Part shown: positions 27,909 to 56,881 of the stretch, in pieces
Position numbering within the stretch: position 1 is the stretch's first letter
How the letters are laid out: each line of letters starts with the position of its first letter
From: Octopus vulgaris
Taxonomy: Eukaryota
Length of the DNA: 64,000 nt
Assembly: GCA_951406725.2 (NCBI GenBank)
Contig: OX597839.1
Location: forward strand, 41,167,015-41,231,014
Direction: 5' to 3'
Program-made: the position numbers and the translations under genes
Notes under the pieces: model-generated
What the model saw: the letters and a program-made list of their open reading frames with translations, nothing else
The model's database searches: none
Told to the model about the DNA's origin: nothing

Positions 27909-28259
27909 TGTATTGGAAGGTTTGGAGATGATGTACAGGTATTATATATTAGAAGAAATGAGGTACTCAGAAGATCAGATGGTTTATATTTACAGATATT
28001 TATTTATATATTACATTTTTTATATATATATCATATCACTTAGTTCATTAGTGCTTTCTCCCATTCTAGTGGGGTTTTCAAATCAAACTAAGTTTGTAAT
28101 ATATAAATAAATATCTGTAAATATAAACCATCCAATCTTCTGAATACCTCATTTCTTCTAATACATATATATATATATATATTATATTGTGTGAAATTTG
28201 ATTTAGTATTTCTAAATTGAATTTTTTTCCCTGTAAGTTTGGATTAATATTCCCTCAAA

Positions 28260-28305
<46 letters not shown>

Positions 28306-32357: not shown

Positions 32358-33360
32358 ACTCTTTTACTTGTTTCAGTCATTTGACTGTGGCCATGCTGGA
32401 GCACCGCCTTTAATCAAGCAACTCGACCCCGGGACTTATTCTTTTGTAAGCCCAGTATTTATTCTATCGGTCTCTTTTGCCGAACCGCTAAGTAACGGAG
32501 ACATAAACACACCAGCATTGGTTGTCAAGCAATGCTAGGGGGACAAACACAGACACACAAACAAACACATACATATATATACATATATACGACAGGCTTC
32601 TTTCAGTTTCCGTCTACCAAATCCACTCACAAGGCATTGGTCGGCCCGGGGCTATAGCAGAAGACACTTGCCCAAGATGCCACGCAGTGGGACTGAACCC
32701 ATAACCATGTGGTTGGTTAACAAGCTACTTACCACACAGCCACTCCTACGTTATTTTATGAAATTAAGAAAAATTTAAATTAATATATAGAAGAAGGATA
32801 GAAATTAAGCTTAAAACCTAATAATGGGATACTTTAACCCCTTAGTATTCCAACCGGTCACATCCGGCCAAAATATTTAATCTGTTTTTGTTCAAACTGA
32901 CCAGATCCAGGCTCTCACACCTACCCTACAATGTTATTCTACATTAAGTAATTACACCATCAAGATCTTGAAGATAGGCGCAGGAGTGGCTGTGTGGTAA
33001 GTAGCTTGCTAACCAACCACATGGTTCCGGGTTCAGTCCCACTGCGTGGCACCATGGGCAAGTGCCTTCTGCTATAGCCTCAGGCCGACCAATGCCTTGT
33101 GAGTGGATTTGGTAGACGGAAACTGAAAGAAGCCCATCGTATATATGTGTGTGTGTGTGTGTGTGTGTGCATGTATGTTTGTGTGTCTGTGTTTGTCCCC
33201 CTAGTGTGTTTATGTCCCTGTTACTTAGCAGTTCGGCAAAAGAGACCGATAGAATAAGTACTGGGCTTACAAAAGAATAAGTCCCGGGGTCGAGTTGCTT
33301 GATTAAAGGCGGTGCTCCAGCATTGCCGCAGTCAAATGACTGAATCAAGTAAAAGAGTAT
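32358..33360. mobile_element. Head-to-head SINE family A pair (32358-32750 -, 32977-33360 +)
   Basis: Two consensus matches in opposite orientation about 230 bp apart. Confidence 0.88.
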
Positions 33361-34161
33361 ATATAAATATATTAAATTAAAGATAAAACCACTATTAGGC
33401 AAATTTAATATATATATTTATACTGTAAAATTAGATTTAATCCTAAATCTAATTTTTCCCTGTAAGTTTGGATTTACTCCCTAATATTATTATATATATA
33501 TATATATGTTCTTTTGTTCCATTGTTTATTTATACACTCGCTGTATGATATATACTGCTCTGTTGTGTATAGTCACTGTGTATGCACCTGGTACATATGT
33601 GTGTGTGTATACACCTGTTATATATTATATACTGTTTAAGTTTGTATATTTACTGATATTTCTCTTATAGTATCCAAGAGTGTATATTTACTACATTAAT
33701 ACATGATATGTGTGATACACAAACACACACACACACAAACACTCACTCACAGACACTTATACATTACACAGACATATTTAATGACTTACGTAAGGGGGGA
33801 AGGACATTTTGGGGCATCAAACAGCCACAGCCATTTTCCTATTTGGTGAACTTCATCCTCACAGCTAAACGCAGGAGCAAATATGACTTATCTCAGGACT
33901 ACTCCAATGTTCTAATTTCCATGGTTACACACACACACACACACATACTGCTTTCATGACATCACCCAAATTCTGTGACATTTAAATGTCTCACTGCTTT
34001 TGAGATGAATTATTGATTTAGGCATGATTGACACAGCTTCACAATTTTTTTTTTTGATCTCCTTAATTAAATGCCTAAATGTCTATAATGAGATTTATAA
34101 TCTTTCCAGTTTGTAAACTAATCTTTACTGCATGTATTTAATATGTGTGTGTGCATATAGC

Positions 34162-40885: not shown

Positions 40886-41568
40886 CCCAAACTGTCCAGC
40901 ATCCAAAACAGACCCCTTCCAGCCCTACCAATTGATAGAAATGGACATAGTAAATCTAGTATACAGCGATCGTCGCTGCAGAATTTATCGTCGACGGACG
41001 ATGGTGATCGCACGTCTTCAAGTTGTCACGTTCCTCTCAGAGAGTCAGTCCATCCGTATAACCCACGGCGGAGGGAGAGCTCTCCGAAGACTAAGGGTCA
41101 GAGGCCGCTGAGCGGAGCAGCATTTGATATAAAAAAAAGCTACAACGGTTACAGCCGGGCATTGTCATGCGATGCCTCGTACTACGGATACAGATCCAGC
41201 GTCCACTGCCCCCAAGCGTCGCCTCTAGTGAAGCAACAAAGCTTCCCAGAGACAGAAAGCACATCTCTGCAGCAGTTATATACGTTAGAAGGACATGGCA
41301 AACACATTGAGGAACCCTGCTTGCCTGCTAGTTGTCCAAACAACAGCAGCAGCAGCATCACTGACCACCAACATTGGCGACCGACACTTGACATTGGGAG
41401 GCACTTGTCGCCAATGGCACGTCATTCGAGAAAGGAGCCGCATGCACCTCAGCTCCCTTATTCCCAACCTGGACCAACATCATCTCCACAGTCGTCAAGG
41501 TACCAAAATGATAGTCTCTTTCAATACCAGGGTTATTATGATAGTTCCATACCGAATTCACCGTCAAG
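40886..41568 (+). CDS. SH2D5: Exon: disordered linker, last coding exon visible
   Basis: tctctttttctgcag acceptor, 683-nt open frame PKLSSIQNRPLPALPIDRNG...YYDSSIPNSPS, AG|gtaagt donor (phase 2). Confidence 0.8.
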
Positions 41569-44745: not shown

Positions 44746-45946
44746 GTGTGTGTGTGTGTGAAGCACATATCATCATTTAGAATCTGTCTTTCTTGCTGGA
44801 TTGGGGACCAAAGCCTTGTGAGTGGAGCCTAAATGATAAAGCTCTATGACCTATTGTTTGTGATTCCCAGATTGGCCAGAGGTACTCTAGATCTTCTGAA
44901 CTATTTGCCTATACAATAAAGCATTGTCGCCTGTTGCTTGTGGTTAGTGGTACTGCAGGTCTTCTGAAGCCTTTCCCTATAATATAATGCACCGTTTCCT
45001 ATAGCCTATGGTTCATACTATGGTTAGATATTCTATAGGTGTTCTAAGGTGGGGGAAATGGCAGAATCATTAGCACGCTGGGCGAAATGCTTAGTGGTAT
45101 TTTGTCTGCCGCTACATTCTGAGTTCAAATTCTGCCGAGGTTGACTTTGCTTTTCATCCTTTCGGGGTCAATGAACTAAGCACCAGTTACGCAGTGGGGT
45201 CGATATAATCGACTTAATCCATTTGTCCGTCCTTGTTTGTCCCCTCTGTGTGTAGCCCCTTGTGGGCAGTAAAGAAATAAGAAACATTAGCACACTGGGC
45301 AAAATTTTAGCGGTATTTCGTTTGTCTTTACATTCTGAGTTCAAATTTTTCTGAGGTCAACTTTGCCTTTTATCCTTTGAGGGGGTTAATAAATTAAGTA
45401 CCAGTTGCGTACTGGGGTTGATGTAATCGACTGCCCCCCCCCCCCCCACTACCTCCATATTTCGGGCCTTGTGCCTAGAATAGAAAAGATTCTATAGGTG
45501 CTCTGAAATCTCCTCCTCTGCAAAAAGGTTCTATATTAGTAATGTCTTCTGATTCAAATGAGTAATCAGTCAAAATTAGTCCACAACAGCAACAACAACA
45601 ACAACTCACACACACATAGACATGTGCTTGCACACAGCATTTTTGTTTATCTTTATATAGAAAGCTGTTCCAATATATATACACTTTGTGTATGTGGTGG
45701 GGGTGGGGGGTGCATAGGTGTGTTTGTGAACTTCATACAGTTTTTTTCCACTTTTAATCAGAAGAGGTTACTGAAATCAGTCAAGGGTCTCGAGAGTTTA
45801 GTGCCTAACTTTTATCTCTTTCAGAAGTGCCATGCATGAAACTCCTGACCCCTGAGTCATTTTTGTAATTTTTTGCTGATTAATAATAATAATAATAATA
45901 ATTAATAATAATAATAATAATAATGATAATAATAGATAATAATATT

Positions 45947-46093
45947 GTGGTAAGTAGCTTGTTTACCAACCACATGGTTCCGGGTTCAGTCCCACTGCTG
46001 GCACCTTGGGCAAGTGTTTTCTACCATAGCCTTGGGCCGACCAAATTCTTGTGAGTGGATTTGGTAGACGGAAACTGAAAGAAGAACGTCGTA

Positions 46094-46148
<55 letters not shown>

Positions 46149-46633
46149 AAATATTAGGGAATAAATCCAAACTTACAGGGAAAAATCAGATTTAGGATTG
46201 AATCCAATTTTATAGTAAAATATTATATTATATTAAATTAGAGATAAAACCACTATTAGGCAAATCAAACAATGAAAAACTTAAGCCAATACATAAGATT
46301 AATTAATTTATATTATTTAAATATATATCAAAATTATTAAAAAAGAAAATTAATATAACACTACGATCGTTTCATGGCTGTTGACTGATTAGAGATAAAA
46401 CCACTATTAGGCAAATCTTGGTGAGTTAAATAAGTAAACCACCTGAAGAATGACTGTAACTCGAAAATTTTAAGAAATCAACAGCCATGAAACGATCGTA
46501 GTGTTATATTAATTTTCTTTTTTAATAATTTTGATATATATTTAAATAATATAAATTAATTAATATTATGTATTGGCTTAAGTTTTTCATTGTATGATTT
46601 GCCTAATAGTGGTTTTATCTCTAATTTAATATA

Positions 46634-46667
<34 letters not shown>

Positions 46668-46865
46668 GCGTGTGTGTGTTTGTGTGTCTGTGTTTGTCCC
46701 CCTGGCGTTGCTTGACAACCGATGCTGGTGTGTTTATGTCCCTGTTACTTAGCGGTTCGGCAAAAAGAGACCGATAGAATAAGTACTGGGCTTACAAAGA
46801 ATAAGTACTGGGGTCGGTGCTCCAGCATGACTAGTCAAATGACTGAAACAAGTAAAAAAGTAAAA

Positions 46866-46870
<5 letters not shown>
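45947..46870 (+). mobile_element. SINE family A interrupted in its (TA)n tract by a fold-back insert
   Basis: Head 45947-46095, insert ~46145-46638, body and tail 46670-46870. Confidence 0.88.
46440..46503 (+). ncRNA. Candidate minimal type I hammerhead ribozyme (canonical core)
   Basis: CAC-CUGAAGA-AUGACUGU..ACAGCCAU-GAAA-CGAUCG-UA-GUG. Confidence 0.72.
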
Positions 46871-47759: not shown

Positions 47760-48248
47760 TATGTTTACATATATCTGTATGCATATACATATGTTGGTAT
47801 ATGTTTATACATGTATATGTGTGCATACACACACACCACACACACTCACATGTATACAGACATGCACAAACATATGCCTATGTAGTTAGCTGACTATATA
47901 ATTCTTTAATTTGCATCAATATATTCGTGTGTGTGTGTGTATGCATGCATATATATATAACGCATATGTGCATTATGTGCGTGTGTGTATGTATATATAA
48001 TACAACACACATGCACACACACACACACATACTCATATATATATATATATATATATATACCTACATATATTACCTACCCACAAACACTGAAGCCCATTCA
48101 CACACAGACATACAGAACTTTACCCTAATTCTTTAAAACACCTCAGCTATGTTAATTAGGACTCCCACCCCCACTTCTGTTTCACTAGAACTCCTCCCTC
48201 TCCCCTCATTATATATATACATATATATATATACATATATATACATAC

Positions 48249-48313
<65 letters not shown>

Positions 48314-50046
48314 TATATATATATATATGTACATATGTATATATATATATATATATATATACATATATATGTATGTATGTATATATATATATTTATATAC
48401 ACTCACAGTTAATGAAGTGTACAGATGGTTTTTCTTAAGTGTGCAATGTCTCTCTCTCTCTCTCTCTCTCACACACTCTCTTTTTCTCTCTCTCTCTTTT
48501 ATTTCATTCCCTCTCTTTCTCTTGTCTGCCTCTCTCCCTCTGTCTGTCTCTCTCTGTCTTTCTATTTAACTTTCCTTTTTTCTTCCTTCTTCTGTCTGTC
48601 TGTCTGTCTCTGTTTTTCTCTCTAAATTTCTCTGTCTTTGTCTCTCTCTCTCCTTCTCTCTCTCTCACTGTCTCTGCCTATGTCTCTCTCTCTCCTCTCT
48701 CTCTCACTGTCTCTGTCTCTCTCCCTCCCTCTCTCACTGTCTCTGTCTCTCTCCCTCCCTCTCTCACTGTCTCTGTCTCTCTCCCTCCCTCTCTCACTGT
48801 CTTTGTCTCTCTCTCTCTCTCATATCTTGTTTTATGTATGTAAGAAGTTAAGTAGGTAACAGATAACCACCCCAGCACTGCTACAACTGCTACCACCACC
48901 ACCACCACCACCACAACCACAACTACCACCGCCTCAACCACCAACACTAATGCTACACTATATCACCACCACCACCACCACAACTGACTGTCACCACCAT
49001 CACCACCACTATCAGCCACTGCCATCATTCCATGACCACCACTTCCCACAAGAGCCACTGCTACAGCCATCACCACAACCATCACCACCATCACTGCCTC
49101 CACCAGCCACTACTGCCATCATTACTACCACCACCACCACCACCACCACCACCACAACCACTGCCGCCGCCACTACCACCTCCACCACCGCCGCCGCCAC
49201 AACCCCCCCTCCCTTTACAGGTTCAGGCCATAAAAACAACAACCTCTTTTCCCACCACTAACATCAATTTTCCACATTCAATTTCACAGATGAGCTTCGA
49301 ATAACAACAGCAGTGGTAGTGATGGTGGTGGTGGTGGTGGTTGTGGTGGTGGTAGTAGTGGTGATTGATGGTGTTGAAGTGGGGTAATGATGGTGGTGAT
49401 GGTGGTGGTATTTTTATTGATGGTGGTGGTAGTGATGGTGGTGGTGGTGATGGTAGTGGTGGTGGTGATGGTGGTGGTGATTGATGGTATTGAAGGGGGT
49501 AATGTTGGTGGTGGTGATGATTGATGTGGTGGTCATAATGATAATGTTGGTAGTAGTAGTAGTAGTGGTAGTAGTGGTAGTGATAGTGATGGTCACAGCA
49601 ATTGTAGTGGTAGTGGTGGTGGTGTTAATATCAATGATGGTGGTGGTGGTGGTAGAGGTGGTTGTGATGGTGATGGTTGTGGTGATGATTGATGGTGGTG
49701 GTTGTGGTGGTAGTAGTAGTAGTGGTCATAGCGATGGTTTTGTGGTATGGTGGTATGTTTACATATATCTGTATGCATATACATATGTTGGTATATGTTT
49801 ATATATGTATATGTGTGCATACACACACACACACTCACATGTATACATACATGCACAAACATATGCCTATGTAGTTAGCTGACTATATAATTCTTTAATT
49901 TGCATCAATATATTCGTGTGTGTGTGTGTATGCATGCATATATATATATATAACGCGTATGTGCATTATGTGCGTGTGTGTGTGCATGTATATATATATT
50001 TATATATATATATATATAATACAACACACATGCACACACACACATA

Positions 50047-50081
<35 letters not shown>

Positions 50082-50266
50082 ACATATATTACCTACCCAC
50101 AAACACTGAAGCCCATTCACACACAGACATACAGAACTTTACCCTAATTCTTTAAAACACCTCAGCTATGTTAATTAGGACTCCCACCCCCCACTTCTGT
50201 TTCACTAGAACTCCTCCCTCTCCCCTCATTATATATATACATATATATATATATACATATATATAT

Positions 50267-50306
<40 letters not shown>

Positions 50307-50318
50307 CATACATACATA

Positions 50319-50373
<55 letters not shown>

Positions 50374-51551
50374 ATATATATATATATTTATATACACTCA
50401 CAGTTAATGAAGTGTACAGATGGTTTTTCTTAAGTGTGCAATGTCTCTCTCTCTCTCTCTCTCTCACACACTCTCTTTTTCTCTCTCTCTCTCTTTATTT
50501 CATTCCCTCTCTTTCTCTTGTCTGCTTCTCTCCTCTGTCTGTCTCTCTCTGTCTTTCTATTTAACTTTCCTTTTCTTCCTTCTTCTGTCTGTCTGTCTGT
50601 CTCTGTTTTTCTCTCTAAATTTCTCTGTCTTTGTCTCTCTCTCTCCTTCTCTCTCTCTCACTGTCTCTGCCTTTGTCTCTCTCTCTCCTCTCTCTCTCAC
50701 TGTCTCTGTCTCTCTCCCTCCCTCTCTCACTGTCTCTGTCTCTCTCCCTCCCTCTCTCACTGTCTCTGTCTCTCTCCCTCCCTCTCTCACTGTCTTTGTC
50801 TCTCTCTCTCTCTCATATCTTGTTTTATGTATGTAAGAAGTTAAGTAGGTAACAGATAACCACCCCAGCACTGCTACAACTGCTACCACCACCACCACCA
50901 CCACCACCACCACAACCACGACTACCACCGCCTCAACCACCAACACTAATGCTACACTATATCACCACCACCACCACCACAACTGACTGTCACCACCATC
51001 ACCACCACTATCAGCCACTGCCATCATTCCATGACCACCACTTCCCACAAGAGCCACTGCTACAGCCATCACCACAACCATCACCACCATCACTGCCTCC
51101 ACCAGCCACTACTGCCATCATTACTACCACCACCACCACCACCACCACCACCACCACCACCACAACCACTGCCGCCGCCACTACCACCTCCACCACCGCC
51201 GCCGCCACTACCACCTGCACCGCCGCCACAACCCCCCCTCCCTTTACAGGTTCAGGCCATAAAAACAACAACCTCTTTTCCCACCACTAACATCAATTTT
51301 CCACATTCAATTTCACAGATGAGCTTCGAATAACAACAGCAGTGGTAGTGATGGTGGTGGTGGTGGTGGTGGTAGTAGTGGTGATTGATGGTGTTGAAGG
51401 GGGTAATGATGGTGGTGGTGGTGGTTATGGTGGTACTGATGGTGGTGGTAGAGATGATGGTGGTAGTGATGGTGGTGGTGGTGATTGATGGTATTGAAGG
51501 GGGTAATGTTGGTGGTGGTGATGATTGATGTGGTGGTCATAATGATAATGT

Positions 51552-51583
<32 letters not shown>

Positions 51584-51735
51584 ATAGTGGTAGTGATAGT
51601 GATGGTCACAGCAATTGTAGTGGTAGTGGTGGTGGTGTTAATATCAGTAATGGTGGTGGTGGTGGTAGAGGTGGTTGTGATGGTGATGGTTGTGGTGATG
51701 ATTGATGGTGGTGGTAGTAGTAGTAGTAGTGGCAG
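47760..51735. repeat. ~2-kb tandem duplication (two copies)
   Basis: Unique anchors recur at offsets of 1989-2004; differences are mostly microsatellite lengths. Confidence 0.93.
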
Positions 51736-51976
51736 TGGTGTTAATGTTGTTGGTACTTAATAAGTTACAGTATTGGCACCAGCTGCAGTACTGGTTGTTT
51801 GATTAGACCCACAGAACAGGCTCTGTAGTTGATAAGATCACCTTACATCCACATGGTTTCAGGTTCAATCCCATTGCCCAGCAACTCAGGCCAAGTATTC
51901 TCTTCTACAACCCCAGGTCAACTTAAGCATTGTGAGTGGATTTGGTAGACAGAAAATGAAAGAAGCCAATTGTGTT

Positions 51977-56239: not shown

Positions 56240-56881
56240 ACACTCGCACACACATACACACTGACACACACATACACACTGACACACACATACACACTGA
56301 CACACACATACACACTCACACACGCATACACACTCACACACACATACACACTCACACGCGCGCACGCACACACACACTCACACACGCACATACACACACA
56401 CACTAACTATTGTTCTTCTCTCCTCTGCCTCCTCCTCTGCCACCTCCTCCTCCTCCTGTTGTAACTGTTTCTATTATGGTTACTCTTACATTTGTTGTTG
56501 TTGTTGTTACTGTTGTTGTTGCTCCCAGTGTCCGCTGCAACAACAGCAGCAGCGGTACCGCTGCTGCGGCTATTAATCTTATCCTAAACAGACCAAGACA
56601 GATTAACAGTCTAGTGAGCAGCAGAGGTGTCTGGAGACTTTACTGACCACTAGATGGCCATTTACCGTCGTCCGACAGATCCAATCCGTGCAGCTTCATT
56701 GGCAACTCAAGGAAAGGATGGGATAGTTCTTGTTTTTTTGTTGCTTTTATCTATATATATATATTTTTTTCCTTTTTGTTGTTTTGGCTTTCTTCCCCAA
56801 TCTCCTACATTACAATGCAGTTCACACTTTGTTGTTTATGGTCAGAAGAATTCACTATGTGTGTGTATGTATGTATGTATG

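Follow-up and report, generated by a model that had tools for sequence, protein, structure and literature searches.

The window, a stretch of 64,000 nt of the Octopus vulgaris genome, carries on its plus strand an exon of a PTB/SH2 adaptor gene (40886..41568) that ends in the splice donor AG/GTAAGT after 41568. The next annotated exon lies at 56527, and the insert studied here, at 46145-46638, occupies the intron between them. The nearest named proteins to this adaptor are from Octopus, with 98–99% identity. Because the adaptor exons are on the plus strand, with a donor after 41568, the hammerhead motif in the insert is intronic and in sense orientation, the strand being the one given in the sequence-only reading, made from the letters of the window without database searches. 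The window, which stops at the contig end, yielded no SH2 exons for the host gene, and the annotated last exon of host protein P0001 (56527-56643) is unlike the SH2 end of its relatives. A Pfam search with the host exons and with pieces of the parent ORF described below gave no match at the cut-off, and a solved-structure search with one host exon gave no match. A local duplication of about 1.5–2 kb of low-complexity sequence, in which near-identical reading frames occur twice, is present at about 48190-49630 and 50170-51760.

The insert had been described as nested in a SINE, and its flanks are indeed the two halves of a repeat found uninterrupted at many other sites in the window. Contiguous copies in the window delimit both plus-strand halves: the 5' half (45946..46090), whose head is partly lost and which contains the B-box-like motif GGTTCAGTCC, and the 3' half (46666..46870). 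We take the SINE to be of tRNA type from this motif. The target within the SINE is a (TA)n tract, now split into a left part (46091..46144) and a right part (46639..46665). The copy is young, with 98% identity to other copies, and the insert is probably a neutral occupant of an ordinary locus; its effect on the host intron would be at most an extra 161-bp RNA hairpin.

Two inverted arms and a patchwork junction make up the insert. The left arm (46145..46384, minus strand) is a leader sequence in antisense, running from its tail end back past the site of predicted cleavage as far as the 3' strand of helix II, with 224/235 positions identical to the parent element at L082; its tail end, about 46145-46223, has no counterpart in the right arm. 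A CTG filler (46385..46387) follows, then a 30-nt minus-strand re-copy (46388..46417, 100% identical) of 46237-46266, from near the short 3' end, and then an inverted 9-nt piece of exon 1 (46417..46425, minus strand), the reverse complement of CTCACCAAG, a variant also present in L008 and L120. The AG of this piece is shared with the right arm (46424..46638, plus strand), which consists of the end of exon 1 (46424-46429) and exon 2 from 46430, with 200/214 positions identical to the parent exon 2, and stops at the short 3' site. The long inverted repeat is as first described, with arms of 161 nt each at 46224-46384 and 46478-46638, no indels and two mismatches (46268/46594 and 46297/46565). 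At 46268 and 46594 both letters are common variants in the family, as is also seen in L007 and L012, and the mismatch could reflect a hot spot or be a hint of two templates. An exact re-copied piece does exist, although it is 30 nt long and starts at 46237, rather than about 29 nt from 46238; its interpretation as a template-jump signature stands for a jump of some kind, reverse transcriptase jumping and end-joining repair being indistinguishable here.

The related termini noticed elsewhere in the window are likewise present. One is a small head-to-head copy of the family (33365..33496; match span 33348-33496, 86–91%), composed of a short-end arm and a tail arm without a hammerhead; the other is a diverged minus-strand tail fragment of a related family (28171..28269, 76%). 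A second inverted-repeat element of unrelated sequence lies in (TA)n at 27943-28167, with an arm identity of 76%, and pieces similar to it adjoin family copies in L019 and L260; it is probably another Penelope-type terminus.

The hammerhead motif

A minimal type I hammerhead at 46440..46503 (plus strand) was delimited by its core, pairing, family conservation and folding. Every coordinate in the sequence-only reading was verified: a 3-bp helix I, CAC/GTG (46440-42/46501-03); the canonical core CTGAAGA (46443-46449); helix II, ATGACTGT/ACAGCCAT, with 7/8 bp paired (46450-57/46481-88); GAAA (46489-46492); the palindromic helix III ACGATCGT (46492-46499); and a predicted cut after A46500, followed by GTG. 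A 32-mer spanning the 5' core has 96 exact copies genome-wide, compared to none for a reversed control, and the fold is kept in subfamilies of differing sequence, so the motif goes beyond chance. In the sister subfamilies the core and helix I are conserved, another helix, of 5 bp, stands in place of helix II (UUGUC/GACAA and AUGUC/GACAU), and the helix III forms, ACGAUUGU and ACAAUUGU, are still self-pairing. Across 16 variants, 99% of 192 cells in helices I and II were paired, a level reached by 6/500 shuffles, and one compensatory pair was found in the helices (a single event, in 5/16 rows). The core read CTGAAGA in 57 and CTGATGA in 34 of 91 distinct motifs, the search pattern itself having required the core. 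In an older subfamily (L259, L265, L321), a 150–200-nt AT-rich expansion separates the hammerhead from the 3' sites, and the helix II loop is longer.

Folding gave the window motif on its own pair probabilities of about 0.7 for helix II, 0.3 for helix I and 0.01 for helix III, and gave the palindrome ACGAUCGU a self-duplex energy of -10.0 kcal/mol. An Rfam scan contained no hammerhead among the 150 listed of 208 matches (E<=1), those listed being microsatellite-driven microRNA only; the models are built on compact motifs, and loop II here has 23 nt. Judged by sequence and family conservation, this is a real hammerhead motif and a putative ribozyme of the ordinary Penelope kind.

The parent element and its spliced leader

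A Penelope-like (PLE) association and an autonomous parent had been proposed for the insert, and by following the upstream sequence of family copies we reached a parent of about 5 kb in the same genome. Its tandem units measure 4967 nt (L082) and 4842 nt (L266), each repeat contains a hammerhead, and a single ORF codes for reverse transcriptase (RT; YRDD at 359) and then for a GIY-YIG endonuclease at the C-terminal end (YIG at 714-744), with no CCHH motif seen by eye. The motifs DKT, CxCX5C, CxxC..E and N..CxH are all present in 5/5 intact ORFs (820–851 aa; six regions fetched) and also occur in broken ORF pieces of the window's subfamily, and the RWK position reads RIKWKA, with K replacing R. 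On this sequence evidence, what has inserted is part of the 5' leader, or terminal repeat, of a Penelope-like retrotransposon of the Hydra clade. Assignment of the parent to Naiad was dropped, its endonuclease being C-terminal, and Hydra-1_Obim was rejected after a by-eye comparison, as both protein and hammerhead differ; the family is a new Hydra family, set apart from Hydra-1_Obim by eye. A palindromic 34-mer taken for upstream sequence proved to be a single junction.

A 30-mer near the 3' end has 6137 exact copies genome-wide and none for the reversed control, giving at least 6137 arms. Among 125–126 scored matches, none from the window's own subfamily had an uninterrupted ORF, and the 12 open frames of at least 820 aa all belong to a sister subfamily at 86–89% identity. 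The sister-subfamily loci L328, L329, L330, L332 and L333 have uninterrupted ORFs of 820–851 aa and their own hammerhead helix II; an asparagine-rich stretch separates RT and endonuclease in the sister ORFs, and from its sequences this subfamily may still be active. Two further loci are of interest. At L061:541-1480, in the sense of the family copy, a leader fragment runs directly into the 3' portion of another Penelope-like ORF, one with a CGRPNCGVC linker, possibly a chimera or a nested insertion. L082-L085 (G000:C20) holds a pair of near-identical full-length tandems, separated by about 33 kb and with flanks in common, which would be a segmental duplication or an assembly duplicate.

The key point beyond the sequence-only reading is that the insert copy is spliced. 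The parent repeat contains an intron of 851 nt with GT-AG ends (GTATGT..TTTTAG, L082:8596-9446), whose 3' end lies 10 nt before helix I. In the right arm of the window, AGTTAA followed directly by ATAAGTAAAC at 46424-46439 is exon 1 joined to exon 2, with the intron exactly absent. Genome-wide, exact 22-mers across the acceptor junction gave 359 spliced and 112 unspliced copies, and exact 17-mers across the donor junction gave 362 and 13; these counts are exact-match lower bounds, and 359:112 is the fair splicing figure, 362:13 being inflated since intron-truncated copies are missed. The joint 8595>9447 was also present in contigs of two of three runs guessed to be RNA and of a fourth, DNA-like run. 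Contigs are unable to show RNA ends, and none of the places listed had many ends.

Spliced and unspliced copies differ in how far they extend upstream. Only 17/362 spliced copies reach 32 nt upstream of the donor, compared to 11/13 unspliced ones, and in an ungapped walk none of 95 spliced contexts continued beyond 51 nt, whereas 9/15 unspliced contexts continued beyond 100 nt. The 51-nt limit of the spliced copies likely marks the transcription start, as read from copy ends. In L266, a full-length element, the 5' leader is spliced, with 7 exon-1 bases, and the 3' leader is unspliced. Among leaders that enter the ORF with a hammerhead upstream, 8/9 were unspliced and only that of L266 was spliced, which we counted against the proposal set out below.

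Paired ends, templates and the origin of head-to-head copies

Two 3' sites serve as end points for the family's arms: a short site, at 46638 in the window, and a tail site, 75–80 nt beyond it and at 46145 in the window; each lies upstream of the ORF. In three samples, which were pattern-selected and lean to contigs C1-C2, 76/189 loci were head-to-head; 73 of these combined a tail with a short end, three combined two short ends and none combined two tails (73 of 76 against even odds, P about 1e-18). When the first sample was recounted by segments, there were 33 mixed-end, three short-short and four cut or complex pairs, with the window among the last. Splice state was likewise shared between arms: among 30 pairs both arms were spliced in 15 and unspliced in nine, none were mixed and six were unscorable. 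This agreement in 24/24 scorable pairs indicates that both arms come from one template; variants common to both arms were left out because they are unable to separate the models.

Piles of 5' ends at two positions in an alignment to a single reference were an artefact of subfamily differences, and the mapping was repeated with several real references and a stricter walk. Among 100 arms sampled downstream of the ribozyme, 32 (about 29 after a by-eye check) had 5' ends at -2 to +28, four ended inside the next 60 nt and 32 beyond. A further sample was drawn from one subfamily and overlapped the first in part; here two arms with internal deletions were reassigned to the class ending beyond, and 20/52 ended at -3 to +24 and 6/32 of the remainder in the next 66 nt, a 5.5-fold higher rate in the pile (P 6e-5). 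Several arm ends fall on the predicted cleavage site itself. The 20 piled arms comprised 12 solo arms, six with a partner that also stops short and two with a read-through partner, the last two being equally explained by a stall at the ribozyme edge. In pairs with a read-through partner, the shorter arms showed no such pile (3 vs 10; P 2e-4). The pile just 3' of the cleavage site is thus a possible trace of cleavage in vivo, and from these ends the use of cleaved RNA as a template seems about as probable as not. Both arms of the window copy pass the cleavage site, and its own template was therefore uncut.

Reading from the genomic copies alone, we consider it quite likely that the insert is an intron-less head-to-head leader fragment, made when the element's enzyme cut a (TA)n tract and both DNA ends were primed on one spliced sense RNA. 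The RNA would begin some tens of bases upstream of the donor, be spliced, and be bound in its 5' UTR; priming would take place at the tail site, which precedes the ORF start by about 57 nt, for one DNA end and about 75–80 nt further upstream for the other. In the window, the left cDNA would have halted in helix II and the right cDNA would have got to exon 1, and the two would have been joined via short templated pieces (the CTG, the 30-nt re-copy and the inverted 9-nt piece of exon 1). Leader copies of this kind, with neither promoter nor ORF, would be dead ends, and productive copies would stem from read-through RNA on which priming takes place in the downstream repeat, its intron still in place, so that the intron survives. 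Half-masking by the inverted arm was correctly noticed: folding predicts that the left arm pairs with the 3' half of the ribozyme, and with that arm present the hammerhead pairs cost 41.5–50.5 kcal/mol and have pair probabilities of 0.0. In the host pre-mRNA the left arm would be transcribed first and pair with the 3' half, so that the window copy would not cut, and it is predicted to be silent. A more ambitious reading, that copy ends record the whole Penelope cycle in vivo (two-site priming, dead-end copies from capped spliced mRNA, use of cut RNA, and intron retention through the downstream repeat), is conceivable, and we hold it tentatively, as somewhat short of probable. If true, it would account at once for the retained intron, the head-to-head ends and the tail on one side only, and would provide genomic evidence for germ-line cutting by a Penelope hammerhead.

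The pairing of ends has to be set against a fold-back model, in which a single cDNA begun at the tail folds near the RNA 5' end and copies itself to an internal TA-rich site, its centre being deleted asymmetrically later. Many junctions are small hairpin-type palindromes, and fold-back with asymmetric central deletion would yield one tail and one short end as well as a common splice state. Long palindromes are moreover prone to central deletions. However, in 33 pairs the tail arm and the short arm each reached further 5' in 15, with three ties; some tail arms are stubs of 20–50 nt; and among solo copies in the 189 loci short ends (71, the commonest class) outnumber tails (37). Fold-back would require a separate deletion for each of these cases, many of them flush with (TA)n. 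Two-ended priming fits better than fold-back because fold-back needs so many later deletions, and we regard fold-back as unlikely. Self-priming on an antisense transcript, put forward as a way of making head-to-head ends and as an idea for intron retention, matches the geometry as described in the available portions of PMC3846280, but most copies crossing the intron have lost it as a GT-AG intron in sense orientation, and spliced arms (both arms, in 15 pairs) contradict this route for the window's family, where it is barely credible.

Two other readings concern the hammerhead-bearing unit itself. The family is non-coding, abundant and equipped with a hammerhead, and the portions of a preprint available to us (bioRxiv 10.64898/2026.07.22.740005) derive retrozymes from Penelope repeats, all of which would suit a non-autonomous retrozyme or a MITE-like unit amplifying as a whole hairpin. 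Yet the junctions all differ, with none common to copies in the sample, direct tandem arrangements occur at only 3/82 loci, the sequence belongs, as leader, to a parent that codes for protein, and the unspliced forms continue into the parent intron and 3' UTR, leaving such a unit very improbable. The remaining reading is a co-opted intronic switch, in which a sense ribozyme is silenced by the inverted arm within the host pre-mRNA and cleaves the transcript once released. The motif is in sense, within an intron and intact in its core, as a switch would need, but the copy is young (98% to others) in a family of at least 6137 arms, the block of 41–50 kcal/mol is too deep for switching, and the free monomer forms helix III at a probability of 0.01. 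Inverted arms are the family's usual product (76/189 loci), and nothing points to a function for either masking or sense orientation; masking is a by-product rather than a switch, and we find co-option highly doubtful.

Comparison with known Penelope-like systems

Several traits of this family are already known from other Penelope-like elements. The portions of PMC4209133, PMC8557442 and PMC11167929 available to us document hammerheads within Penelope repeats, truncated copies in inverted orientation, tails on one side only and insertion into (TA)n targets, and the partial text of PMC4209133 notes opposite-strand hammerhead pairs 100–700 bp apart. PLE intron retention is called unexplained in the available portions of PMC8557442, and so are inverted ends with a one-sided tail and the role of the hammerhead. 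For intron retention, selection (PMC2377424) and an antisense template (PMC3846280) have been proposed, again according to partial texts. Within the literature covered by our search, neither spliced genomic copies nor paired ends nor the window's family had been described. Hundreds of exactly spliced copies in a young family show a sense template and mark the likely start site, and with its thousands of copies the family bears on both intron retention and the formation of inverted ends. Its copies speak for a sense template that had been spliced, for priming from two ends and, possibly, for cleavage in vivo. The countable rules (a short with a tail end, a common splice state, ends at the cleavage site) are testable in an existing in vitro system, and intact sister ORFs exist.

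As far as the available portions of PMC8557442 describe the Hydra clade, the octopus family resembles it in its C-terminal GIY-YIG, DKT, CxCX5C linker, CxxC before E, CxH after N and lack of CCHH, in its sense hammerhead near the 3' end and (TA)n targets, and in its inverted 5'-truncated copies, one-sided tail and tandem forms. It differs in unit length (4.8–5.0 kb here, generally under 3 kb there), in tail length (about 75–80 nt compared to 30–40 nt), in having KWK for RWK, and in a leader intron of 700–851 nt with mostly spliced short copies. Penelope of Drosophila virilis (PMC2377424 and PMC4209133, in part) similarly has its start site and 5' UTR intron inside the repeat, the intron's 3' end beside helix I and a small palindromic helix III; it retains its 75-bp intron in genomic copies, whereas here spliced copies dominate. 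The minimal type I PLE hammerheads in the accessible portions of PMC4209133 share the long helix II, the short helix I and a helix III that is palindromic and predicted to require dimer formation. The candidate ribozyme here departs from those motifs at the base of helix II, with A-U or U.U for G-C, as in listed Hydra motifs.

A mechanistic parallel exists with PAc, a Poseidon element of Anolis carolinensis. As reported in the portions of PMC11167929 available to us, the purified Penelope-like protein acts on both strands, which it cuts and extends, starting at two internal sites, and the start site in vitro is independent of strand; the pairing rule seen here therefore needs a constraint from one RNA or from a dimer. 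PAc and, on our reading, the octopus family have two internal RT starts bounding the tail, extension of both strands, AT-rich targets and uncleaved RNA as a template. In PAc the starts lie inside the ORF, with the ATG in helix II, whereas both starts lie upstream of the ORF here; and the same partial text describes no reads ending at the cleavage site, whereas the genomic ends of the octopus family pile just 3' of it.
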